DNA of 24,000 nt from Enterobacteriaceae bacterium G50 (GTDB lineage: Bacteria > Pseudomonadota > Gammaproteobacteria > Enterobacterales > Enterobacteriaceae): assembly GCA_035726825.1 (NCBI GenBank), contig JALNTX010000007.1, positions 142,883 to 166,882 of the forward strand, in the 5' to 3' direction. This document shows positions 1 through 23,773 of the stretch, piece after piece. The translations under genes and the position numbers were made by a program. Every line of letters begins with the position of its first letter. Within the stretch, counting starts at the first letter, position 1. The notes beneath the pieces were generated by a model. That model was not told where the DNA came from and ran no database searches. It saw only the letters and a program-made list of their open reading frames with translations.

Positions 1-2195
1 ATGGAAGGGATCATCATCAACAGCAGCGGAATAACTGCAGGTACAATCGCCGGAAGGCTTTTTACATCCGGGTTATAGCGATAGCGGGTTTCGAGGGTCA
101 TCAGGCCATTCTGCGCGTTTGAGGTCGGCTGGCGGCTGGCGACGTCCTGTAGCCAGGTCTGGTGCATTGCCTGCACATAACCCTGCACTGTTTCCGCCCG
201 GCTCGGCATCGCACCATCCACCCAGACGCCGATTTTCACCGGCGTACCGCGCGCAATATCACGGCCAAAGTTGGGCGGAATTTCAATCGCCACCGCCACG
301 TCGCCTGCCCGCATTCGTTTATCCAGCTCGTCATAGCTGGTGAGCGGCGGCTGTTCGATGAAGTAGCGCGAACCAGCAAGATTAAGCGTCCATTCCTGGC
401 TGCTCATGGTTTGGTCGCGATCGAGTACGGCAAAGCGCAGGTTTTCGACATCCATGCTGATGCCGTAACCCATGATCAGCATCAGAATCACCGTGCCGAG
501 CATCGCCAGCGTCGAGCGTACCGGATCGCGTCGCAGTTCCAGCGCTTCCCGGCGACTGTAGCTGAACAGGCGGCGCAGGCTGAAGCCCTGACGCGGCGGT
601 GTTGGCGCTTCATGCGTCACTGGGATGTCGTCCGGTGGCGGCACCTGCGGCGCAGGGCCGGAGGCTTCCTGAAGCCAGGCGATAAACGCCTCTTCCAGAT
701 TCGCCGCGCCACGGCGCGCAACCAGTTCCTGCGGCGTGCCGCTGGCCAGCACCTTGCCCGCATGCATCAGCGACATGCGGTCGCAGCGCTCCGCTTCGTT
801 CATAAAGTGAGTGGAGATGAAAATAGTGACTTTATCCTGCCGCGACAAATCAACCATCAGCTGCCAGAACATATCGCGCGCCACCGGGTCTACACCGGAG
901 GTCGGTTCATCAAGAATGAGCATTTCCGGGCGATGGATCACCGCCACCGCCAGCGACAAACGCTGGCGAATGCCTAACGGCAGCGAGGCGGGCAGCGCGT
1001 CCTCGACGTCGGCGAGCATGAAGCGATCGTTCATTTCAGCGACTCGAGCCGGGATTTCCGCTTCGGGAATATGAAACAGGCGGGCGTGAAGCTCCAGGTT
1101 TTGCCGCACGGTAAGCTCGCTGTAAAGCGAGAATGCCTGCGACATATACCCTACCCGGCGGCGGGTTTCGATATCATTCGGGTCAACCGGCTGGCCGAAC
1201 AGCCAGGCTTCGCCTTCGCTGGCAGGCAGCAAACCTGTCAGCATCTTCATGGTGGTTGATTTGCCGCAGCCGTTGGAGCCGAGAAAACCAAAAATCTCGC
1301 CGCGCGGAATGCGAAAATTCACATGGTCGACTGCGACAAAATCGCCGAAACGCATGGTGAGATCGCGTGCTTCAATGGCGATTTCCGCATTTTCTGCCTG
1401 ATACGGCGGAATGACGACCGGTTTATGCGCCTGCCGCTGCGCCTCGGGCAACAGGGCGATAAATGCCTGCTCCAGCGTCTCGCTGCCGGTTTTATCCCGT
1501 AGCTGTTTCGCGCTGCCCGTCGCCATCACTTCCCCGGCGTTCATCGCCACCAGCCAGTCGAAGCGCTCAGCTTCTTCCATGTACGCGGTTGCGACCAGCA
1601 CGCTCATGTTGCTTTGTCGTTCGCGGATGCTGTCGATCAGATCCCAGAACTGCGCGCGTGAAAGCGGGTCAACGCCGGTCGTCGGTTCATCAAGGATCAA
1701 CAATTCCGGGTCGTGGATCAGCGCGCAGCACAGCCCCAGTTTTTGCTTCATCCCCCCAGAGAGCTTCCCGGCGGGGCGATCGCGGAACGGGGCCAGCCCG
1801 GTGCTGTTCAGCAGTTCGCTGATCCGCGCTTCGCGCTCCGCTTTGTTGTGGCCAAACAGGCGCGCGAAGAAGTCGACGTTTTCATACACCGACAGCGTGT
1901 GATAGAGGTTTTTGCCCAGCCCCTGTGGCATCCAGGCGATACGCGGGCAGACATCACGGCGGTGCGCCGCATCGCGCATATCGCCACCGAGCACCATCAC
2001 GTTGCCTTGTTCAATTACCCGCGCGCCGGAAATCAGCGACAGCAGGCTCGATTTGCCCACGCCATCCGGGCCAATCAACCCCACCATGCAGCGTGAGGGA
2101 ATGTTCAGCGTAATGTTCTTTAACGCCACCGTCGCGCCGTAACGCTGGCCGACGCCTTCAAGCAGCGCGACAGGTTCCCGTACCTGGCCTTTCAT
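1..2195 (-). CDS. rbbA: Ribosome-associated ATPase RbbA: fused double ABC ATPase plus ABC-2 permease. Partial, the C-terminal part runs off the left edge.
   Basis: Minus-strand ATG at 2195-2193 gives [20 protein letters not shown]...[12 protein letters not shown] (Walker A). A second Walker [15 protein letters not shown], is encoded near 1261-1300. The frame at 1-119 reads [24 protein letters not shown], typical of an ABC-2 permease. The track lists no minus ORF here, consistent with a frame open to the edge. Start overlaps the yhiI stop (ATGA). Confidence 0.85.
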
Positions 2196-3259
2196 TGTGG
2201 CAGCCTCACCACCAGGTCATCCGGCCAGGGCTTCTGCTCATCCAGACGCACCCACGCCATGCCCGGCAGCCCGGTTTTCACATACTCCAGATGCTGTTGC
2301 AGCAGTTCCTGCGGAATGCGCGCCTTCACGCGGAACATCAGTTTCAGCCGCTCATCGCGGGTTTCCACAGTTTTTGGCGTGAACTGGGCGACACTCGCCA
2401 CAAAACTGATGGTCGCCGGCACGCGCAAATCAGGCGCGGCATCAAGCACAAGACGCGCTTCCCCGCCAATCTTCAGCAAACCCGCCTGCTCGGTCGGCAG
2501 GAAGAAGGTCATATAAACATCGCTGAGATCGACCATATTGAGTACCCGGCCGCCCGCCGCCAGCACTTCGCCCGGCTCGGCGACGCGATACTGCACACGC
2601 CCGTCGCGCGGGGCTTTCAGTTCGCTGTCGTCGATATCAGCCTGAATGCGCCGCTCGGTAGCCTGCGCCGCTTCGACGCGGGTTTGTGCCTGAATGATAT
2701 TGGTGCGCGCCGCTTCAATCGCCGCGTTAGACGCCGAAACCTGCGCCTTTGCCGACTCCAGCGCCGCACGTGCGCTTTCTGCCGCTGCGCGATCGTCATC
2801 TAACTGCTGGGCAGACACCGCGCCGCGCGTCGATAGCGTCTGCGAACGAGTGTGCCGTTTAGAGACGGATGCCAGCTCGGCATCACGCTGCTTCACCACC
2901 GCCTGCGCCGCACGCATCTCGCTCTGACGCTGCTCCAGCAAGGCTCGCGCAGCCGCGACCGCGCTTTCCGCTTCTTTGATTTGCGCGATAGCTTCCTGGC
3001 GTTGCTCGTTCAGCACGCGGGTATCCATCTTCGCCAGCACCTCGCCCTGACGCACAAACTGCCCTTCCGATACCAGAATGGTGTCGATGCGCCCGGCGAT
3101 TTTGGTAGCGATATCCACTTCCGTGGCCTCGATTCTGCCATTGCTGGCGGCGAAACCGTCAGGCACGCCTGCGGGGCGTAGCATCCACCACGCCACGGCA
3201 GCCACCACCACCACGATGCCAATGATCCACCACGTCAAATGACGCTTAATGTTTTCCAT
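2192..3259 (-). CDS. yhiI: HlyD-family membrane fusion/periplasmic adaptor protein of the YhiI-RbbA-YhhJ transporter
   Basis: 355-aa ORF with an N-terminal anchor helix ([18 protein letters not shown]), a long Ala/Gln/Arg-rich coiled coil and beta-barrel-like ends. Its TGA overlaps the rbbA ATG, suggesting translational coupling. Same position as in K-12. Confidence 0.85.
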
Positions 3260-3599
3260 ACTCGACCCGCCATAATCCCTGTTAGCTAACCACGCGTGCC
3301 ATAATGCGCGCCGAACACGCGTTCAGCGACGATTCCCCTCCGGGATAAGAAGGAAAGAAGAGAGAAAGCCAGACGGTGTACAGGCGTCGGGATGACGCTC
3401 ACCGTAAAGGAGAGTGCTGGATGAAGGTGTTGCGAAATCGGGTAGTAATGTTGTCATCATCAGCGTTCCTGGCCGTAAATGAAACACGCGTACTCATTGA
3501 TACTGTCAATGTGATAGTAACACCTGGTTTTTGTATGTCTATTGTGTAAATGAAATGAGTTTAACCTCAATAAATTATAAACAGACACAACTATTAAAG

Positions 3600-3628
3600 T
3601 TGTTAACTATTTTGATAATGGCTATTCT
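3600..3628 (+). promoter_or_regulatory. Candidate sigma70 promoter for the M-box/mgtE transcript
   Basis: TTGTTA (3600-3605), 17-nt spacer, TATTCT (3623-3628). This would place the transcription start about 10 nt before the riboswitch P1 helix. Pattern match only. Confidence 0.3.
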
Positions 3629-3644
3629 GCCGACTCAATTTAAC

Positions 3645-3819
3645 GATCTCGTTATGGCGAGGCTCCTGTACAAAAATAAGTTATCGCCCTGTTGGTATCG
3701 AGAGAGACCGCTCAGGGAAATACAGGCATCCATCGAATCAAGGTGTTGCCAAGATAACTTCTGCCAAAATGCTTTTGGTCAGATACGTTGTACAGTGCTA
3801 AATCCAGGACGTAGGGATC
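3645..3819 (+). promoter_or_regulatory. M-box (ykoK leader) Mg2+-sensing riboswitch aptamer
   Basis: Blocks match my recollection of the B. subtilis mgtE M-box. CGTTATGGCGAGGCTCCTGTA matches CGUUAGGUGAGGCUCCUGUA. CATCGAATCAAGGTG matches CAUCGACAUAAGGUG. GTACAGTGCTAAATCC..ACGTAGG matches AUACAGUGCUAAAGCUCUACGAUUG. GATC/GATC closes P1. It lies directly upstream of an MgtE-family gene. Confidence 0.8.
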
Positions 3820-3876
3820 TGCTTTGCTAATCCTGTCTTGTTCGCCCCTATGAGAACTTTTCTATAGGGAAATTTT

Positions 3877-4890
3877 ATGTCCTCCATTCAATATGATGCT
3901 ATCCACAATGGCTTAACGGCTTTCCAGGGTGATGCGATCGCACAATATATGCGTACTGATTTTATGACGTTACCCGACGATCTTTGCGTGGGCGAAGCAC
4001 GCGACCGCTTTATTTCTCAACTCTCTCTTCAGGATATACCTGGACAACTTTTTGTTGTCGCCGGTAAAACGCTACGCGGCGTACTCTCAATAAAAAAGCT
4101 CCTTCAGGAAAAAGATTTAAAACTTCCGATTATCCATCTAATGGACAATTGCTTGCTCCGTGTGAAGCCTGATGCAGAGCGTGCTGAAGTTGTGGCTACT
4201 CTTGCACAGCGCGAGCTGGATGTTATTCCCGTTGTCGATAAAGGCGAGCTTGTAGGCTGCCTGACGATGAAAGAGATTGTGCATTTGCAGGAAGACGACG
4301 TTACCGAGGATGCTCAATTACAGGGAGCCACGCTTCCTTTAGAAAAACCATATCTTGATATGACGCCATGGGCGTTATGGAAAAAACGTTCTGTCTGGCT
4401 GCTATTACTATTTGTCGCTGAAGCCTATACCAGCAGTGTGCTTCAACATTTTGAGGAGTCGCTGGAGTCTGCTATCGCACTGGCGTTTTTCATACCTTTA
4501 TTGATAGGTACTGGAGGAAACAGTGGTACCCAAATTACCTCAACGCTTGTACGCGCGATGGCCCTTGGTGAGGTGCGTTTACGTGATATGGGGCAGGTTA
4601 TTCGTAAAGAGGTGACAACCTCATTCATGATTGCGCTGACATTGGGTCTTGCGGGCTGTTTCCGAGCCTGGATGATGGGGATTGGCGTCGAAATCACCAT
4701 GATCGTTAGCCTAACGTTAGTTTGCATAACGCTCTGGAGCGCAATTGTGTCCTCAGTCATTCCAATGGTGCTTAAGCGGATTGGCATCGATCCCGCAGTT
4801 GTATCTGCGCCCTTTATTGCAACGCTGATTGATGGCACAGGTCTTATTATCTACTTTAAAATCGCCCAGTATTTTCTTGGGTTGAATTAA
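3877..4890 (+). CDS. mgtE: MgtE-family Mg2+ transporter, short form: CBS pair plus MgtE transmembrane domain, without the ~130-aa MgtE N-domain
   Basis: 337-aa ORF. The CBS-like region includes VIPVVDKGELVGCLTMKEIV. The TM domain has MgtE hallmarks FIPLLIGTGGNSGTQ and DPAVVSAPFIATLIDGTGLIIYF. SD AGGGA lies 7 nt upstream. GC is visibly lower than in the flanking genes. Confidence 0.85.
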   Translation: MSSIQYDAIHNGLTAFQGDAIAQYMRTDFMTLPDDLCVGEARDRFISQLSLQDIPGQLFVVAGKTLRGVLSIKKLLQEKDLKLPIIHLMDNCLLRVKPDAERAEVVATLAQRELDVIPVVDKGELVGCLTMKEIVHLQEDDVTEDAQLQGATLPLEKPYLDMTPWALWKKRSVWLLLLFVAEAYTSSVLQHFEESLESAIALAFFIPLLIGTGGNSGTQITSTLVRAMALGEVRLRDMGQVIRKEVTTSFMIALTLGLAGCFRAWMMGIGVEITMIVSLTLVCITLWSAIVSSVIPMVLKRIGIDPAVVSAPFIATLIDGTGLIIYFKIAQYFLGLN

Positions 4891-4947: not shown

Positions 4948-6153
4948 CTATTTGCCTGTAGCGCTCTCCCCCAGCGCCTGTGCGCAGGCCCAGGCGCTCG
5001 ACCATGCCCACTGGAAGTTATATCCGCCCAGCCAGCCGGTGACATCCATCACTTCGCCAATGAAATAGAGCCCCGGCACTTTACGCGCTTCCATGGTTCG
5101 GGAAGAGAGTTCGTTGGTATCCACGCCGCCCAGCGTTACTTCTGCTGTGCGATACCCTTCCGTGCCGTTAGGCTGCACGCGCCATTCGGTTAAGATCTCC
5201 ACCAGCGTTTGCTGATCGCGCACGTTAAGCTGTTTCAGCGTGACATCCGGAATCTGCCCCAACTGCTGCAAACACTCCACCAGGCGTTTCGGCAGATGCA
5301 TCGCGAGGGTGTTTTTCAGGCTCTGATTCGGGTGTTCCGCGCGCTGCGCATCAAGGAATTCGACAAGGTCGATATCCGGCAACAGGTTAATGGTGACAAA
5401 CTCCCCTGGCTGCCAGTAGCTGGAAATCTGCAACACCGCCGGGCCAGAGAGGCCGCGATGGGTAAACAGCAGGCTTTCACGAAAAACGGTGCCGTCTTCA
5501 GCGCTAATCACTGAAGGTACTGAAACGCCGGAGATAGTCTGGGAAACATCCAGCATCGGTTTGTGCAGAGTAAAAGGTACCAGCCCGGCGCGGGTTGGCA
5601 GAACCTTCAGGCCAAACTGTTCAGCTATTTTGTAACCAAATGGCGAGGCGCCAAGACCCGGCATCGACAATCCGCCGCTGGCAATCACCAGTTTTTTCGT
5701 GGTGACCGTTTCACCGTTGAGTTGCAGGCAAAAGCCCGCTTCATCACGCTCAACGCTCAATACTTCGCTACGCAGGCGTGTCGTAACGTTACCTTTTGCA
5801 CACTCATCTACCAGCAGCTTCACGATTTGCTCGGCGGAATCATCGCAGAACAATTGCCCCAGCGTCTTCTCATGCCAGGCGATGCCGTGTTTTCCGACCA
5901 GGTCGATGAAGTCCCATTGGGTGTAGCGCGCCAGCGCAGATTTGCAAAAATGCGGGTTTTGGCTGAGATATGCCGCGGGCTCGACATAAAGATTAGTAAA
6001 GTTGCAGCGGCCGCCGCCGGACATCAAAATCTTGCGCCCCGGTTTCTTACCGTTATCCAGTAGCAGCACGCGCAGGCCCGCCTGCCCGGCCTGCGCGGCA
6101 CAAAACATTCCTGCGGCACCTGCCCCAATTACAATGGCATCAAACCTTTCCAC
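4948..6153 (-). CDS. yhiN: NAD(P)/FAD-dependent oxidoreductase, HI0933/BaiN-like
   Basis: 401 aa. The N-terminus MERFDAIVIGAGAAGMFCAAQAGQAG carries a GxGxxG dinucleotide fold. Matches remembered K-12 YhiN and sits divergent from pitA as in K-12. Confidence 0.85.
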   Translation of the reverse strand: MERFDAIVIGAGAAGMFCAAQAGQAGLRVLLLDNGKKPGRKILMSGGGRCNFTNLYVEPAAYLSQNPHFCKSALARYTQWDFIDLVGKHGIAWHEKTLGQLFCDDSAEQIVKLLVDECAKGNVTTRLRSEVLSVERDEAGFCLQLNGETVTTKKLVIASGGLSMPGLGASPFGYKIAEQFGLKVLPTRAGLVPFTLHKPMLDVSQTISGVSVPSVISAEDGTVFRESLLFTHRGLSGPAVLQISSYWQPGEFVTINLLPDIDLVEFLDAQRAEHPNQSLKNTLAMHLPKRLVECLQQLGQIPDVTLKQLNVRDQQTLVEILTEWRVQPNGTEGYRTAEVTLGGVDTNELSSRTMEARKVPGLYFIGEVMDVTGWLGGYNFQWAWSSAWACAQALGESATGK

Positions 6154-16664: not shown

Positions 16665-16696
16665 ATATCCCCTGCATGGCAACATGTGGGGGATAT
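16665..16696 (+). terminator. Stable stem-loop after gor, terminator-like but with no U-run
   Basis: ATATCCCCTGCATG-gcaa-CATGTGGGGGATAT. This is a 14-bp stem with 2 G-U pairs and a GNRA-type loop. The track's ATG at 16676 lies inside the 5' arm of the stem. Confidence 0.4.
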
Positions 16697-16726
16697 CTGA
16701 CTCTCCCGTTAATTCTCTGTGGGTTT

Positions 16727-17557
16727 ATGAAGAATAAAAAATCTAAAATATTTGCAGGCTTTATTATTATTCTTGTTTGTATTTTCTCTTTCTATTATTA
16801 CATCACAAATTATCCACAAATAGATAACTTCCACGTCACAATCGACGCCAAACAGATCTCGGATTTAGAGGGTGGATTATCCGGTCTGACCTGGAATAAA
16901 GACACACAAACGCTGTTCGCCGTCACCGATGCGCCCTCTTTAATTCTGGAACTCAGCACGGATGGAAAGGTGCTGCGCCGTATCAATACCGATAAACCCG
17001 CTGACCTCGAAGCTATCGAATATATTGGCCATAATCGTTTTTATCTTTCCAAAGAAAAGAGCGGGACGCTGGCGATAGTCACAATCAATGCCGACACGCG
17101 ACATGTGGATATCAGCAACGCGGAAACCTATCGCCCCGCCATTCAGGCCGAAAAACAGAATAGCGGCGTGGAGGGATTAGCCTGGAAACCTGAACTGTCT
17201 CGCATGGTCACAGCCCAGGAGAAAAAACCCGTCCGGATTTTTAATATCCTCGATAACGAAGGGGTATTCAAAACGGATAAAAGTCCGCTCAATGAATTAA
17301 TGCTCTCCTGGTATGTGCGCGATATCTCCGGAATGGATTTTGATGGCTCGACGTCTAACCTCTATATTCTCTCCGACATTTCGCAAAAAGTCGTGCTGGT
17401 CGACCGCGAACATAACCTGAAATTTATGTCGCTGACGGCCGGGCATTATGGCCTTTCCCGTGATATTCCGCAGCCGGAAGGGATCGCCACCGACGGCACG
17501 GGCAATCTTTACATCGTCAGCGAACCGAATCTGTTTTATAAATTCAGCCCGCGTTAA
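16727..17557 (+). CDS. Membrane-anchored YjiK/'SdiA-regulated'-domain protein (predicted beta-propeller)
   Basis: The preferred start MKNKKSKIFAGFIIILVCIFSFYYYI is a basic N-terminus followed by a signal-anchor. The body has family-like motifs (LSGLTWNKDTQTLFAVTD, DLEAIEYIG, VEGLAWKP, PEGIATDGTGNLYIVSEPN). The 5' end is AT-rich. Confidence 0.65.
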   Translation: MKNKKSKIFAGFIIILVCIFSFYYYITNYPQIDNFHVTIDAKQISDLEGGLSGLTWNKDTQTLFAVTDAPSLILELSTDGKVLRRINTDKPADLEAIEYIGHNRFYLSKEKSGTLAIVTINADTRHVDISNAETYRPAIQAEKQNSGVEGLAWKPELSRMVTAQEKKPVRIFNILDNEGVFKTDKSPLNELMLSWYVRDISGMDFDGSTSNLYILSDISQKVVLVDREHNLKFMSLTAGHYGLSRDIPQPEGIATDGTGNLYIVSEPNLFYKFSPR

Positions 17558-17622: not shown

Positions 17623-17784
17623 TTATTTTTCATAAACCTGAAAAAATCTCATCTTGTCACCCTGCCAGAAAGTGTGATCTTCCGCACGCTTTGCTCACCC
17701 GTAACCGAAGCGAATGTCTACGCTTTATAAGTGGCCGGATAAAACCGGGATGTAAAACGACGCTCACCGGAGGTGACCTGCGCT

Positions 17785-19434
17785 ATGTTCAACCAGAAAA
17801 TACGTAACGAAGAGTCCGAAGCCTTAGCTATTGACGTCGAGCTGTGCTACGAAGCGGATCCGTACGAATTAAAACTGGATGAAATGCTCGATGCCGAACC
17901 GGAGCCGGAAGTCATCGAGGGGCTGCCCGCCTCCGATGCCTTAACGCCAGCCGATCGTTATCTGGAGCTGTTTGAAAACGTTCAGCGCGCGCGCATTTTC
18001 AGCGATAGCAAAACGTTTCCGGACTGCGCGCCGAAGAAAGATCCGCTGGATATTCTCATCCACTATCGTCGTATCAAGCGTAAACCAGGCTTCGACCTGC
18101 GCCGCTTTGTGGAAGAGAACTTCTGGCCGCCGGAACTGCGCGACAGCGAGTACGTTTCAGACCCGGATAAATCCCTGAAAGAGCACATCGACACGCTCTG
18201 GCCGGTGTTGACTCGCGAGCCGCAGGATCATATTCCCGGTTCGTCACTGCTGGCGCTGCCGCAGTCGTATATCGTGCCCGGCGGGCGCTTTAGTGAGACC
18301 TACTACTGGGACTCATACTTCACCATGCTGGGGCTGGCGGAGAGCGGTCGTGAAGACCTGCTGAAATGCATGGCCGATAACTTTGCGTGGATGATTGAGC
18401 GCTACGGACATATTCCGAACGGTAACCGCACCTATTATCTCAGCCGCTCGCAGCCGCCGGTGTTTGCGCTGATGGTAGAGCTGTTTGAAGAGGATGGCGT
18501 GCGCGGCGCGAAACGCTATCTCGACCATTTGAAGATGGAGTACAGCTTCTGGATGGACGGTGCGGATTCGCTCATTCCGAATCAGGCTTATCGCCACGTG
18601 GTGCGCATGCCGGACGGCTCGCTGCTCAACCGCTACTGGGACGACCGCGACACGCCGCGCGATGAGTCGTGGATTGAGGATGTCGAAACGGCGCAGCACT
18701 CAGGCCGTCCGCCCAATGAAGTGTATCGCGATCTACGCGCCGGAGCGGCATCCGGTTGGGATTACTCCTCTCGCTGGCTGCGCGATACGTCTCGCCTGGC
18801 GAGTATTCGCACTACCCAGTTTATACCCATCGATTTGAACGCCTTTCTGTTCAAACTGGAAAACACCATCGCCAATCTTTCCGGTTTGAAGGGCGAAAAA
18901 GAAACCCAGGCGCTGTTTAAGCAGAAGGCCAGCGCACGCCGCTCGGCGGTAACGCGTTATCTGTGGGATGAAGAGAATGGCTTGTTCCGTGACTACGACT
19001 GGCGTCGCGAACAACAGGCGCTGTTCTCAGCCGCCAGCGTTGTGCCACTGTATGTCGGGATGGCGACACATGAGCAGGCAGACCGGCTGGCGCTGGCGGT
19101 ACGCGCCCGGCTGCTCACGCCGCGCGGTATTCTGGCAACAGAGTATGAAAGCGGCGAACAGTGGGATTACCCGAACGGCTGGGCCCCGCTACAGTGGATG
19201 GCGATTCAGGGATTTAAGCTTTATGGCCATGATGTGCTGGGCAACGAAATCGCCCATAACTGGCTGGAGACGGTGAATCATTTCTATCGTGACCACCATA
19301 AGCTTATCGAGAAATATTACATCGCCGACGGCACGCCACGCGAAGGGGGCGGCGGGGAGTATCCGTTACAGGATGGTTTCGGCTGGACCAACGGCGTGGT
19401 ACGCCGTCTGATTGGTTTGTACGGCGAGCCTTAA
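17785..19434 (+). CDS. treF: Cytoplasmic trehalase (GH37)
   Basis: The start at 17785 gives [34 protein letters not shown]..., 549 aa, closely matching remembered E. coli TreF ([38 protein letters not shown]). GGAGG lies 11 nt upstream. Confidence 0.95.
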
Positions 19435-19449
19435 CACACCTTATAAACC

Positions 19450-19615
19450 CGTAGGCCTGATAAGCGAAGCGCATCAGGCAGTTACACCGCACATGCCGGG
19501 GGCGCTACGCTTGCCCGGCCTACAAGTTTCAGAAACACCGTAGGCCTGATAAGCGAAGCGCCATCAGGCATTTTCATCGCCCTCGCCGGGGGCACTGCGC
19601 TTGCCCGGCCTACAA
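19450..19615. repeat. BIME array: two tandem ~77-bp units, each with two REPs, at 89-bp period
   Basis: Unit 1 (19450-19525) and unit 2 (19539-19615) both read CGTAGGCCTGATAAGCGAAGCGC(C)ATCAGGCA...GCCGGGGGC.CT.CGCTTGCCCGGCCTACAA. They lie between convergent treF and the 526-aa gene. Confidence 0.85.
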
Positions 19616-19629
19616 TGGCTCAAAAACCG

Positions 19630-21210
19630 CTATTTAATCGCCGCATATATTTCGCGCTGTACGTCCAGCCATTGCTTGTTGTGTGTCGTCGGCTCGGCCT
19701 TCACGCGTTGTCGAGCGTTATCCACTTCCCGTCGTTGACGTTCAACCACGGCGGGGCGGGTACAAAACGCCTGTAAAAGATCGCGCCCTGTCGTCGTCAG
19801 TGCTTCACCGCCCGCCAGCATGTGGCTCAGGGTCGTGATAAAGCGCCGACACGGTTTCGGTTCATCCATTTGCAGGCGATAGCGCAACAACATCGCAATC
19901 ACCTCGTCGTGATTCGCCGCCAGCGCCTGCTCCGTCCAGGCGAGCTGCCACTCCATTCCGCCGCGCATGAAAAGCTGCACCACCTCAACGTCGTTGCGGT
20001 CGATAGCCGAACGCAATCCATTGATATCCCAGTTAATACCGCGATTCGCCAGCTGCTCTCGCGGCGATTCTCGCGATGGCGCTTCTATTCCCGGCGCAGG
20101 CGTCGTCGATGCGCTGGCCGTTGGCGCGACGGTTGGCGTATCAAGCATCCAGAATCCGCCAACGACCATCGCCAGCACCATCAGCCCCACCGCGGCCCAC
20201 AGCCCGGAGGAGATTAACTTATCTCGCGCCTCCACCGTTCGGGCTGATTTTTTACGGACACGTTCAATCGACTCATGAATCGGCTGATCATCCGCACCGT
20301 GCAGTCGGGCAAAATCGCGTTGCTCATCCCAGAAATGCTGTACCGCATTTCCGTCCGCAGCCATCAGGCTGGCGGGATTCACCAATGTTCTGCCCTGTTC
20401 AAACGCCCGCTGGATCGGCGTGGCAATCTGCCGGGCGTAGATATCCAGCAGCAGAAAAGCGGTGGATGACACGGCGCGCTGACTAACCACCGCCTTGCGT
20501 ATCAGACGGATATCATCCAGGAACGCATGCAGCGTCAGACGCGGGTCCGCATGGAAAGTGAACTGGGTCGTGCTGTGGAAAAGCGACGCGTAATGACGCG
20601 AAAACGCTTTTTTATCCACCACCAGCAGCGCCAGCTCGCTGAACTGCATGCCACTGAGCACATCTCCCCCGGTGCTGCGCGAAAGCCAGCGCCGCACGCT
20701 GTCCGCGCCAAATTGCAGCTTGAGATAATTGTGCAACCGGGTGGTATCCGGCCAGGCCTGACGAATAAGGGACGCCAGCATCAGTTGGATCATGCGCAGC
20801 TGGCGCAGCGCGAGCGCTTCCAGTTGCTCGGCATCCGCATCAGAATCGCTCTCAAAGATCAGTAACGGCTGACGATGGCGAACCAGCTCCAGTGCGGCAA
20901 CCATCCGCGCCGCGGCGATCAGCTGATCCTCCGTGATGGGTTGCCCACGCTCATATTGCGGTACCAGCTTCTGTAAATGGCGCAGTTGCAGGGTAAATTC
21001 GCTCAGCTCAGCATCATTGATATTGAGCTTTTTCGCCACGCTCGCCCAACCGCCCAGATTAAGCCGGGCCTGATCCAGTTGCTCCAGAAACCAACGCGGA
21101 TCCTTCCCTTCGCCGACGCGCATGTCGAGCAGGTTAAGGATCTCTACAGACGCCTGGCGGATCACGCCGAGGCAATGTTCAAATAATTGATGCGATGGAG
21201 TAGGCATCAT
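19630..21210 (-). CDS. Uncharacterized single-pass inner-membrane protein: helical HEPN-like cytoplasmic N-domain, one TM helix, Pro/Thr/Ala/Ser linker, ankyrin-like periplasmic C-domain
   Basis: 526-aa ORF with SD AAGGA 5 nt upstream. The TM helix LISSGLWAAVGLMVLAMVVGGFWML covers residues ~332-356 (nt 20143-20217). It is preceded by RVRKKSARTVEARDK, so positive-inside predicts N-in. The linker is TPTVAPTASASTTPAPGIEAPS. The C-domain has repeats NGLRSAIDRNDVEVVQLFMRGG and TEQALAANHDEVIAMLLRY. Confidence 0.75.
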   Translation of the reverse strand: MMPTPSHQLFEHCLGVIRQASVEILNLLDMRVGEGKDPRWFLEQLDQARLNLGGWASVAKKLNINDAELSEFTLQLRHLQKLVPQYERGQPITEDQLIAAARMVAALELVRHRQPLLIFESDSDADAEQLEALALRQLRMIQLMLASLIRQAWPDTTRLHNYLKLQFGADSVRRWLSRSTGGDVLSGMQFSELALLVVDKKAFSRHYASLFHSTTQFTFHADPRLTLHAFLDDIRLIRKAVVSQRAVSSTAFLLLDIYARQIATPIQRAFEQGRTLVNPASLMAADGNAVQHFWDEQRDFARLHGADDQPIHESIERVRKKSARTVEARDKLISSGLWAAVGLMVLAMVVGGFWMLDTPTVAPTASASTTPAPGIEAPSRESPREQLANRGINWDINGLRSAIDRNDVEVVQLFMRGGMEWQLAWTEQALAANHDEVIAMLLRYRLQMDEPKPCRRFITTLSHMLAGGEALTTTGRDLLQAFCTRPAVVERQRREVDNARQRVKAEPTTHNKQWLDVQREIYAAIK

Positions 21211-21517
21211 CGACGTCCTTAACCCACAGTTAGGAAAGTAACCTGAAGATTAGTAAGGTTTATTTTTGTTTTTTTGCTGAAACAACTTATACGAACCCGC
21301 CAAAATTAAAAGACCAGGGCAACGCTAAAGAACCAAAATTCGATCGCTCTCACGACTTTGCAGGCAAACGATTGGCCTTTCTAACTATTGTTGCAGCAAA
21401 TTTCGCAAGACGCGGAATATTTTCTGGTGACAGACAAGGTTTACCCAGGCCATCTGGCGAATAGGCGCGGGCAAACACATCCTCTACACTCGCTAACCAC
21501 TTGAGTGAGGAAGAAAA

Positions 21518-21994
21518 ATGTCGAACATTCCCCTGCATATCAGCCCGGAAGGGTTAGGATTTATCAAACAGTGGCAGGGATTTTCTGCCGAACCGTATCA
21601 GGATGAATGTCATCTGTGGGTCGTGGGCTATGGTCATTTGATTCAGGGGAGCGAAGCGTACGATATGCCCGTCAGCGCGTCACAGGCTGACGCGTTATTG
21701 CAGCTGGATATTCAGGCCTGCCAGCGCGTGCTGGCGCAGGAAATAGCGGTGCCGCTGACTCAGCGCCAATATGATGCACTGATCTCACTGGCGTTGAGCC
21801 TGGGGCCTGAGATATTTGCTCGCTCGCCTGTATTGCATTACATCAATCATCAACAGTTTGCTCAGGCGCTTGCGGCATGGTTGGTGGAAACAGAGCTTAA
21901 TGGGGTGAGAAGCAACGGCCTGAACAAACAACGTCAGGCCGAATGTGCCTTATTCCGAACAGACCTGGGACGGGAGTTCATGCGCGCTGAATAA
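21518..21994 (+). CDS. GH24 (T4/P22-type phage lysozyme fold) protein with substituted catalytic residues; no signal peptide
   Basis: 158 aa with SD GAGGAAG. It aligns without gaps to remembered P22 gp19 and phage 21 R. ISPEGLGFIKQWQGFSAEPYQDECHLWVVGYGHL aligns with ISSNGITRLKREEGERLKAYSDSRGIPTIGVGHT. VPLTQRQYDALISLALSLG aligns with VPLNQNQYDALCSLIFNIG. The catalytic Glu position is Q20 (CAG, 21575-21577). Confidence 0.8.
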   Translation: MSNIPLHISPEGLGFIKQWQGFSAEPYQDECHLWVVGYGHLIQGSEAYDMPVSASQADALLQLDIQACQRVLAQEIAVPLTQRQYDALISLALSLGPEIFARSPVLHYINHQQFAQALAAWLVETELNGVRSNGLNKQRQAECALFRTDLGREFMRAE

Positions 21995-22576
21995 CATGGC
22001 CGCCTGAGTGCGATTTTTCACATCCAGACGTCGGTATAGCGATTCAAGATGTGCTTTCACCGTGCCCGCGCTGATATTCAACGTGCGGCTGATCTCTTTA
22101 TTTGATTCGCCGTTTGCCAGCAGTTCCAGTATTTCACGCTGGCGATGGCTAAGCTGTTCCAGCCCACGCTTTTCGCTTTCATAATTAAACGTCCAGCCGC
22201 CAGGAAGACACATTAAGCCGCACGCGGCGCCGTTAATGGCCTGCACAAACGTTTCAACGCTTTCATCACGCGGCACAATAGCTTGAACGTTCCATGCAAG
22301 CGACTCTTTCAGCCACGCTTGCTGACAATCACTCGCCACAATCACCGTATGCGATGACGGAAACTGCTGCGCTTTTTCCTGCAATAACCAACTGCAAAAC
22401 GATTTATCCATGTCGCCATCCAGAATAAGCAATGCCTCTGGAAATTCCAGCAACTGTCGCCACAGTTCATCAGCCTGACTGACGGCGTAAATATCTACTT
22501 CAGGAATATTTTCCTGCAAACTGATCTTCATTCCATGAATAAATATTGACTGCCTGTCAAACATGATTACCTGCAT
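21950..22576 (-). CDS. yhjB: LuxR/FixJ-type response-regulator-like transcription factor
   Basis: 208 aa. MQVIMFDRQSIFIHGMKISLQ... and the C-terminal HTH LSHRQREILELLANGESNKEISRTLNISAGTVKAHLESLYRRLDVKNRTQAA match remembered E. coli YhjB. Confidence 0.85.
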   Translation of the reverse strand: MQVIMFDRQSIFIHGMKISLQENIPEVDIYAVSQADELWRQLLEFPEALLILDGDMDKSFCSWLLQEKAQQFPSSHTVIVASDCQQAWLKESLAWNVQAIVPRDESVETFVQAINGAACGLMCLPGGWTFNYESEKRGLEQLSHRQREILELLANGESNKEISRTLNISAGTVKAHLESLYRRLDVKNRTQAAMLFSAHELPSQVCSE

Positions 22577-22903
22577 ACTGATTCCTCATCAGAAAAATGA
22601 ACCCTACACATTGAAGGGTGAAGGGTATTACTAGCGGAGGTAAATAAGAACTCGCTGTTTGGCCTGGGCTATTTTACTGAGGAAAATAAAAATAAAAACA
22701 TTTTTATTATGAATGATTGCGAAGTGTGGGGAAGCATTACTTATTCACATTATTTATTACATTCTATTTAAGGAAATCCTGAATATAACTCTCCATGGGA
22801 ATAAATATTAATTTCGAGAAGCATAGCGCGGTGGCGGAAATAAAGGAAAGGTGATGAGCAGGGGTGAGTGTTACAAGGTGTGAAATAGCACGAGTTGTTG
22901 TTT

Positions 22904-23011
22904 CCCCTCACCCTAACCCTCTCCCACAGGGAGAGGGGACTGATTGTGCATAGCTTAAAGAACTGCGCCGGTTTTCTCCCTCTCCCTGTGGGAGAGGGCC
23001 GGGGTGAGGGG
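22904..23011. repeat. Composite palindromic intergenic repeat, copy B (inverted relative to copy A)
   Basis: The reverse complement of 22969-23011 is identical over 43 nt to 11161-11203 (CCCCTCACCCCGGCCCTCTCCCACAGGGAGAGGGAGAAAACCG). The other arm shares a 34-nt identical run. It ends 3 nt from the SDR stop codon. Confidence 0.85.
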
Positions 23012-23014
23012 ACT

Positions 23015-23773
23015 CTACAAAAACATCCCTCCAGACACCTCCACCCGCTGCGCGTTCATCCAGCCGAGCTTATCGCTCAGCATTGCGGCAATCGCATCAC
23101 CGATGTCGTCCGGCATACCCACGCGCCCCAGTGCGGTTTGCGAGGCAATATGCTGATTGATTTGCGCATTATCACGCACGCTGCCGCCGCCGAAGTCGGT
23201 TTCTATCGCTCCCGGCGCAATCACATTGACCGAAATGCCGCGCTCGCCCAGCTCTTTCGCCTGATAGCGCGTGAGCACTTCCATTGCGCCCTTCATGGCG
23301 GCATAGGCAGCAAACCCCGGAAGCGCGAAACGCGCCAGCCCCGTAGAAACGTTCAGGATGCGTCCGCCGTTTTTAATCAACGGTAGCAGGCGTTGAGTCA
23401 GGAAAAATGGTCCCTTAAACTGAATGTTCAATAATTCATCAAACTGTGCTTCCGTGGTCTCAGCAAATGGGGCATTGATACCAATGCCCGCATTGTTCAC
23501 TAAATAATCAAACGAGTCGCGCTGCCACGTCTCTTTCAGCGCCTGTTTAACCTGCTGCGAAAAATCGCCAAATGTACTGATATCACTGACGTTAAGCTGT
23601 AATGCCACCGCTTTCACGCCCATTTGCTGAAGTTCTTCCACCACATCCTGCGCCGCCTGCTGCTGGCTATGCCAGGTAAAGAGAATATCTATTCCCTGAG
23701 CGGCCAGTTTCAATACGGCGTTTTTGCCCAGTCCACGGCTGCCGCCAGTCACTAATGCGATACGTTGCGTCAT
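23015..23773 (-). CDS. Classical short-chain dehydrogenase/reductase (SDR)
   Basis: The preferred start at 23773 (SD GAGG 6 nt upstream) gives MTQRIALVTGGSRGLGKNAV (TGxxxGxG). NNAG and the Ser...YAAMK catalytic motif are present. 252 aa. The track's 23812 start adds 13 unsupported residues. Confidence 0.85.
   Translation of the reverse strand: MTQRIALVTGGSRGLGKNAVLKLAAQGIDILFTWHSQQQAAQDVVEELQQMGVKAVALQLNVSDISTFGDFSQQVKQALKETWQRDSFDYLVNNAGIGINAPFAETTEAQFDELLNIQFKGPFFLTQRLLPLIKNGGRILNVSTGLARFALPGFAAYAAMKGAMEVLTRYQAKELGERGISVNVIAPGAIETDFGGGSVRDNAQINQHIASQTALGRVGMPDDIGDAIAAMLSDKLGWMNAQRVEVSGGMFL

Follow-up and report, generated by a model that had tools for sequence, protein, structure and literature searches.

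We analysed a stretch of 24,000 nucleotides from Enterobacteriaceae bacterium G50 (assembly GCA_035726825.1, contig JALNTX010000007.1, positions 142,883 to 166,882 of the forward strand), which is called the window below. Between treF, the gene of the cytoplasmic trehalase, and a yhjB-like regulator gene, the window carries two genes that diverge from a common spacer. Gene 1 encodes a membrane protein with a HEPN domain and a transmembrane (TM) helix, and gene 2 encodes a protein with the fold of the phage lysozymes of glycoside hydrolase family 24 (GH24). The families of both proteins (PF18729 for gene 1 and the STM3605/4EVX clade of GH24 for gene 2) are catalogued but uncharacterised, and, as an earlier note on this DNA had proposed from the letters alone, canonical catalytic residues have been lost in both of them (Ser243 in place of His in gene 1; Gln20 and Val35 in gene 2). 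The features of the locus are as follows, with positions counted from the first letter of the window.

17773-19434, plus strand: treF (cytoplasmic trehalase), the left flank (NCBIfam NF009773 TreF, 1133 bits; Pfam Trehalase, E=4e-165)
19451-19617: bacterial interspersed mosaic element (BIME) array with four repetitive extragenic palindromic (REP) sequences in two units, the REPs being read directly in the sequence
19630-21210, minus strand: gene 1, HEPN/TM protein of 526 aa (open reading frame (ORF) and PF18729)
21211-21517: divergent spacer of 307 bp between genes 1 and 2
21518-21994, plus strand: gene 2, GH24 pseudo-lysozyme of 158 aa (ORF and PF00959)
21950-22576, minus strand: yhjB-like gene of an orphan response regulator of LuxR/GerE type (Pfam GerE, E=2.7e-21)
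21950-21994: convergent overlap of 45 bp between the 3' ends of gene 2 and yhjB (ORF coordinates)

The ORF positions, the length of the divergent spacer, the BIME on one side and the overlap with the 3' end of yhjB on the other are all as the earlier note had given them.

Gene 1 is a member of the Pfam family HEPN_STY4199 (PF18729, E=1.6e-119, 398.8 bits with a cutoff of 25), which it matches at aa 7-279 and profile positions 10-282 of 282. This agrees with an annotation that the earlier note had mentioned, and NCBI names the orthologues of gene 1 'STY4199 family HEPN domain-containing protein'. A total of 284 orthologues with lengths of 523-541 aa were found, and the named ones are all from Enterobacteriaceae. 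STY4199/STM3604 of Salmonella is a full-length orthologue, which has the same HEPN/TM/C-terminal architecture and lies at the same place beside treF. The parts of gene 1 are listed here.

20374-21192, minus strand: cytoplasmic HEPN_STY4199 domain, aa 7-279 (Pfam envelope), with D233, R235 and R238 invariant in orthologues
20476-20499, minus strand: degenerate HEPN motif R238-K-A-V-V-S-Q-R245, with Ser243 at the position of the family His
20143-20217, minus strand: single TM helix, aa 332-356, N-in/C-out (top Kyte-Doolittle window)
19633-20055, minus strand: C-terminal helical domain in the periplasm, aa 386-526; Cys454 and Cys483 are invariant

There are seven Lys or Arg residues in the 20 residues preceding the TM segment and none in the 20 residues following it, and the topology is therefore N-in/C-out. 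The TM segment is followed by a linker rich in Pro, Thr and Ala, and then by an all-helical domain of 140 aa, whose two invariant cysteines would be as expected of a periplasmic domain. The AlphaFold2 model is all-helical (mean predicted local distance difference test score, pLDDT, of 83), with a pLDDT of 85-96 in the C-terminal domain and the TM helix at residues 326-352. The combination of a HEPN domain and a subsequent TM helix is found in gene 1 as in its family, the profile of which reaches through the TM segment in distant members. The HEPN domain and the single TM segment had been described correctly before, while the description of the periplasmic C-terminal domain as ankyrin-like is without statistical support. 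Ank models were touched by at most 2-3 of 20 orthologue C-domains, with E about 0.2 only; hhalign placed aa 397-424 of gene 1 onto the Ank repeat of a distant relative (P0211) with a probability of 0.2%; and a PDB profile search with the C-terminal domain gave weak or empty results. Foldseek search of the model against PDB and BFVD revealed no neighbour at E<0.3, and no match to gene 1 was obtained from PHROG.

Searching 1.8 billion cluster representatives with a profile yielded 283 HEPN_STY4199 clusters. Many of the distant members have 600-1,325 aa; they keep the HEPN domain and the TM helix, their extracytoplasmic C-termini are variable, and one of them has canonical ankyrin repeats. The motif IRNxxAH[HN]K, which is the canonical Rx4H of HEPN domains, is nearly constant in 99 distant relatives (R in 99/99, N in 99/99 and H in 97/99). 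The corresponding motif in gene 1 is R238-KAVV-S243-Q244, where no His is found at +5 to +7, so that the pattern of active HEPN domains (Rx4-6H) is missing. Among the Enterobacteriaceae orthologues the Arg is retained and the His is mostly replaced, with AHH kept only in the Kluyvera group. The orthologues of this group that carry the His pair in the form RNxxLAHH (loci L014, L017, L021-L023, L025, L026, L029, L030, L033, L037 and L040) offer a natural comparison set of active versus inactive proteins.

HEPN_STY4199 is mentioned in the literature only by the survey of HEPN domains by Anantharaman et al. from 2013 (PMC3710099), where STY4199 is assigned to a TM-fused, Swt1-like group that is labelled 'active', with the table entry 'Fusions to TM (STY4199)'. 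The family is without a reported function. The loss of His from gene 1 would refine this label: as judged from that loss, the enterobacterial branch of gene 1 may now be non-catalytic. The branch is still strongly constrained (omega, the ratio of nonsynonymous to synonymous substitution rates, is 0.03-0.10 for gene 1 in the loci containing the lysozyme gene) and the constraint is even across the N-domain, the TM/linker region and the C-domain. That an Enterobacteriaceae branch of a membrane-anchored HEPN RNase family has lost the catalytic His under such constraint adds to the existing annotations.

From its architecture, the wider family may consist of transmembrane sensors coupled to an RNase. 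Ire1 and RNase L are HEPN RNases of the KEN type that are controlled by a sensor domain, which is lumenal in the former and consists of ankyrin repeats in the latter. By analogy, the wider STY4199 family may likewise couple a sensor domain to an HEPN RNase. However, it has no kinase domain, the order of the domains is reversed, the sequence kinship exists only at the level of the HEPN superfamily, and gene 1 is without the catalytic His. At one locus (L086, positions 50-4354), a distant homologue of 873 aa (P0175) is divergent from a STAND NTPase of 1,434 aa with SAM, NACHT and TPR regions, which hints that some non-enterobacterial members of HEPN_STY4199 may be located in conflict-type neighbourhoods. 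Among the distant HEPN_STY4199 loci, which lie on short contigs, neither a recurrent neighbour nor a lysozyme gene was detected.

Gene 2 matches the full-length profile of Phage_lysozyme (PF00959, E=3.1e-24, 86.1 bits with a cutoff of 22.3) and the endolysin family phrog_7 in PHROG (E=1.6e-25). Its best sequence match in PDB is 6H9D (E=2.8e-16), and 8APP, 2ANV and 4EVX were also matched. Its sequence is that of a protein of 'Enterobacteriaceae bacterium G50' (100% identity). A scan of the N-terminus found neither a signal peptide nor a hydrophobic segment of the signal-arrest-release (SAR) type or any other, and the protein has no TM segment. Three codons correspond to the catalytic residues of T4 lysozyme.

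21575-21577, plus strand: Gln20, at the position of the catalytic Glu (E11)
21602-21604, plus strand: Asp29, the catalytic Asp (D20), retained
21620-21622, plus strand: Val35, at the position of the catalytic Thr (T26)

Of the GH24 catalytic residues, gene 2 has therefore kept Asp alone. In an alignment of 18 members of its clade (from Pseudocitrobacter, Salmonella, Enterobacter, Kluyvera, Superficieibacter and others), 17 have Gln and one has His at the Glu position, the Thr position holds Val, Ile or Leu, and the Asp is invariant, whereas Glu and Thr are both kept in six more distant GH24 homologues. Substitution of the GH24 catalytic Glu by Ala (E11A) abolishes activity (10.1101/418723). 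The fold, the lack of an export signal and the Gln in place of the catalytic Glu had all been recognised in the earlier note, and they are borne out here by PF00959, the N-terminus scan and the alignment.

The ORF of gene 2 is intact in all 46 loci where the gene was found, with omega of 0.08-0.34, and the lysozyme gene is therefore still under selection. Compared with its neighbours, it changes 2-4 times faster (75% aa identity between the window and P. faecalis, compared with 91-98% for the neighbours), and the C-terminal lobe is gone in Salmonella and the Enterobacter cloacae complex, where the proteins have 102-116 aa. In the N-lobe, which comprises 100 aa and is far from the overlap with yhjB, omega is 0.12-0.16. 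Gene 2 and its orthologues are under selection and yet decaying.

Several known proteins resemble gene 2. Its orthologue at the same locus in Salmonella is STM3605 (PDB 4EVX), which also has Gln at the Glu position (IKQWQG) and Val/Ile at the Thr position. The two differ in that STM3605 has 116 aa and has lost the C-terminal lobe, while gene 2 has the full fold of 158 aa, and they share 33% identity. STM3605 is annotated as 'putative phage endolysin' at the treF-yhjB junction, as the earlier note had stated, and STM3604 beside it is the HEPN gene. A deletion mutant of STM3605 exists, for which the paper gives no phenotype (PMC5465630), and in the literature STM3604, STM3605 and yhjB are found only in lists of mutants and in tables of transcriptome data, without mechanistic studies.

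The muramidase domain of SpmX from Caulobacterales (6H9D) is likewise a phage-derived GH24 domain; it has been detoxified, and the host has retained it in a non-lytic function as a localisation factor. SpmX keeps the Glu, carries D20L/T26M, has weak activity left and is fused to TM segments. In contrast, gene 2 has Glu replaced by Gln with Asp kept, stands alone and has no TM segment. Its score with the SpmX model NF051871 of NCBIfam is 59.1 bits, far below the cutoff of 700, and gene 2 is thus not an SpmX protein. A phage lysin domesticated as a cytoplasmic Glu-to-Gln pseudoenzyme, with substitutions opposite to those of SpmX, would be a further addition to the annotations. Gene 2 also shares the fold and the GH motif (YxD...GYGH) with GH24 endolysins of the P22/APSE type, and its best phage matches are 35-39% identical. 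It differs from these endolysins in the replacement of Glu and Thr, in having no export route, and in the absence of a holin, spanin or prophage context.

The distribution of the genes at this locus was analysed in other genomes. A scan with one genome per species detected the HEPN gene in 163 species, and 83 loci were analysed (80 of the 163, the window, one Salmonella locus and one Enterobacter locus). Their contents are given below.

38 of 83 loci: lysozyme gene, yhjB and GNAT gene
8 of 83 loci: lysozyme gene and yhjB, no GNAT gene
27 of 83 loci: HEPN and GNAT genes only
10 of 83 loci: HEPN gene alone

The HEPN gene is thus present without the lysozyme gene in 37/83 loci (45%). A dedicated pair of HEPN and lysozyme genes, which the earlier note had proposed, is not what this pattern shows, at least in one direction: the HEPN gene occurs independently of the lysozyme gene. 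Purifying selection on the HEPN gene is the same with or without the lysozyme gene (omega of 0.05-0.18 without versus 0.03-0.10 with). Where both genes are present, a GNAT gene lies between them in 38/46 loci, and direct divergent adjacency, which is limited to few genera, is found in 8/46. The lysozyme gene and yhjB are co-present in 46/46 loci and co-absent in 37/37, and on the HEPN tree the two have been gained or lost jointly at least 8 times; a remnant of 30 aa in one Enterobacter hormaechei strain marks a deletion. The 3' ends of the two genes overlap or are separated by a gap of at most 38 bp in most genera, with Salmonella (108 bp) as an exception. The finding that this lysozyme relic is genetically tied to yhjB and not to the HEPN gene likewise adds to the annotations.

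The GNAT-family acetyltransferase gene is directly divergent from the HEPN gene in 65/83 loci (for example at 5321-5854 of locus L002). It adjoins the HEPN gene more often than the lysozyme gene does, and it is missing in the window, Pseudocitrobacter, Salmonella and Superficieibacter. In one locus (L094, positions 958-4243, GCA_047608605.1), treF and the HEPN gene are each called as two split ORFs, which reflects either pseudogenisation by frameshift or sequencing error.

The gene order treF, HEPN, [GNAT], [lysozyme, yhjB], SDR, in which brackets mark the variable genes, is kept across more than 20 genera. In Escherichia coli K-12, treF is followed after 50 bp by yhjB, so that the two are direct neighbours there, as the earlier note had said, and both the HEPN and lysozyme genes are missing. 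Comparison of the stretch between treF and yhjB with 5,426 complete E. coli genomes revealed matches for the REPs alone, the rest having no counterpart. The 2.5 kb had been interpreted as an insertion. Since synteny extends over more than 20 genera, it is more likely that the locus is ancestral in Enterobacteriaceae and was deleted in Escherichia than that it was inserted here. The GC content of genes 1 and 2 is like that of their neighbours (lower, 0.44-0.45, in the spacer), in agreement with the long residence suggested before. Neither a holin, a spanin nor any other phage gene was found in the 83 loci, which bears out the earlier view that the genes belong to no prophage remnant or lysis cassette.

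On balance, we consider it somewhat more likely than not that genes 1 and 2 are two separately evolving, vertically inherited pseudoenzyme genes of a core locus, which are neighbours here and do not form a dedicated two-gene module. Vertical inheritance is supported by the gene order, which is constant in more than 20 genera. The status as pseudoenzymes is assigned because His243 is lost from the HEPN domain, because the lysozyme Glu has become Gln or His, and because of the E11A precedent. The HEPN gene is taken to be independent of the lysozyme gene because 37/83 loci are without the latter, omega is unchanged, GNAT lies between the two in 38/46 loci and no lysozyme gene occurs at distant loci. 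In contrast, the lysozyme gene is tied to yhjB by 46/46 co-presence, 37/37 co-absence, at least 8 joint changes and 3' ends that overlap or abut. Under this reading, the product of gene 1 would span the inner membrane with one TM helix, with its HEPN domain in the cytoplasm and a helical domain in the periplasm, and may act by binding or scaffolding across the membrane, without catalysis and independently of gene 2. The product of gene 2 would be a domesticated phage GH24 endolysin that stays in the cytoplasm, has lost the ability to cleave peptidoglycan through the changes of Glu to Gln and Thr to Val, and is retained as a binding protein. We infer that gene 2 serves the yhjB circuit and not the HEPN protein, either as an accessory that binds a protein or ligand or through interference by convergent transcription. 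If the link to yhjB is functional, it would provide the first handle on this orphan regulator, which is induced by indole, and a second example of lysin co-option; if not, the locus would be an ordinary variable stretch of the core genome.

Some observations weigh against this reading. The loss of the canonical His is no proof of inactivity, and another nuclease activity of gene 1 is possible. The loci were seeded by the HEPN gene, and the lysozyme-seeded contexts number only two; both of these are the same locus with the HEPN gene included, and every named member of the Gln clade belongs to a genus in which the HEPN gene is found too. Wherever the lysozyme gene was seen, the HEPN gene and yhjB were both present as well, the HEPN gene and yhjB without the lysozyme gene were found in 0 of the 83 loci, and E. 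coli, which is without the HEPN gene, is also without the lysozyme gene. This pattern would fit a three-way functional link as well, and the two genes may have a role as a sensor or adaptor. Co-deletion of the lysozyme gene with yhjB is also weak evidence of a functional link, because the two genes overlap. An alternative, which extends the model of the earlier note, is a single signalling path made up of the HEPN-TM protein, the dead lysozyme and YhjB. In this path, the periplasmic domain would sense an envelope cue, which the dead HEPN domain and the lysozyme, the latter as an adaptor for muropeptides or proteins, would pass on to YhjB, for which no kinase is known. Besides the match of the lysozyme gene to both flanking genes (46/46), the HEPN gene in the lysozyme-seeded contexts and the missing genes of E. 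coli, this is favoured by the description of YhjB as an orphan response regulator (PMC3405474) and by purifying selection on all three genes. However, the HEPN gene does without the lysozyme gene in 45% of the loci with undiminished constraint, yhjB stands alone in E. coli, and GNAT usually separates the HEPN and lysozyme genes. Moreover, the lysozyme gene lies physically between the other two, and therefore flanking deletions alone would give the same pattern. We consider such a single path unlikely. In a bolder form, the dead lysozyme would be the missing input module of YhjB, acting as a cytoplasmic receptor for muropeptides or proteins, possibly together with the dead-HEPN protein, in a kinase-free envelope-sensing pathway made up entirely of pseudoenzymes. 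We retain this version because the loci with the lysozyme gene are precisely those that have both the HEPN gene and yhjB, and we rate it as quite improbable.

Gene 2 might also be a decaying endolysin relic that has no function of its own, with its frame kept only because its DNA overlaps the 3' end and regulatory signals of yhjB. Its rate of evolution, 2-4 times that of the neighbours, the loss of the C-terminal lobe in Salmonella and the Enterobacter cloacae complex, and the missing catalytic residues are what a relic would show. In contrast, the ORF is intact in 46/46 loci across divergences at which synonymous substitutions (dS) are saturated, omega is low over the full length as well as in the N-lobe distant from the overlap, the overlap does not exceed about 45 bp, and the Gln at the catalytic position is conserved instead of drifting. 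We regard a relic as doubtful for these reasons. The remaining alternative, a phage-defence or conflict system, had been raised in the earlier note and is not supported by our results. It holds that the pair is an anti-phage or toxin-antitoxin-like system based on a HEPN nuclease. Conflict systems recurrently use HEPN domains and lysozyme folds (PMC3710099), one distant family member adjoins a STAND NTPase, and the His is kept in the Kluyvera-group orthologues. Against this, PADLOC-DB 2.0 contains no family that matches gene 1 or gene 2 at E<=0.01; the genes are vertically inherited at a fixed syntenic site of the core genome in more than 20 genera, with no defence island; the catalytic His is lost from gene 1; there is no MNT or antitoxin partner; and the low omega indicates purifying selection, unlike the diversifying genes of an arms race. 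A defence role is thus very improbable.

Within the spacer between genes 1 and 2, three non-coding blocks at 21387-21499 (TATTGTTGCAGC, CCAGGCCATCTGGCGAATAGGCG and TCCTCTACACTCGCTAACCA) show no difference between the window and three Pseudocitrobacter species (100% identity), although dS of the adjacent coding sequences is 0.5-1.5. The two long blocks are missing from every other locus, and the short block is not discriminating. These conserved blocks are probably an operator or leader of gene 2. A sigma-70 promoter scan of the spacer gave no consensus match, and tblastn detected no GNAT remnant in its 307 bp. A minus-strand ORF of 62 aa at 21350-21538 was rejected as a gene, since it contains stops in P. 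cyperus and has no homologue beyond the genus.

The BIME array on the other side of gene 1 consists of tandem REP palindromes like those of E. coli. With blastn, its REPs gave thousands of matches in 5,425 E. coli genomes, and sub-threshold matches to Rfam RF02564 (naRNA4, which is REP-derived) were obtained at 19454-19520 and 19543-19610. Upstream of treF, positions 16676-17557 encode a protein of 293 aa with an N-terminal hydrophobic segment, which belongs to the Pfam family SdiA-regulated (PF06977, E=2.6e-75). This gene is located in a patch of lower GC content (0.38-0.46), and the corresponding region of K-12 has ccp and gadA. Between the upstream region of yhjB and the 3' end of the SDR gene, there is an imperfect palindrome at 22895-23020, with arms of 43 nt that are 86% complementary and a spacer of 40 nt. 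It resembles an intergenic repeat element, and spurious ORFs run through it.

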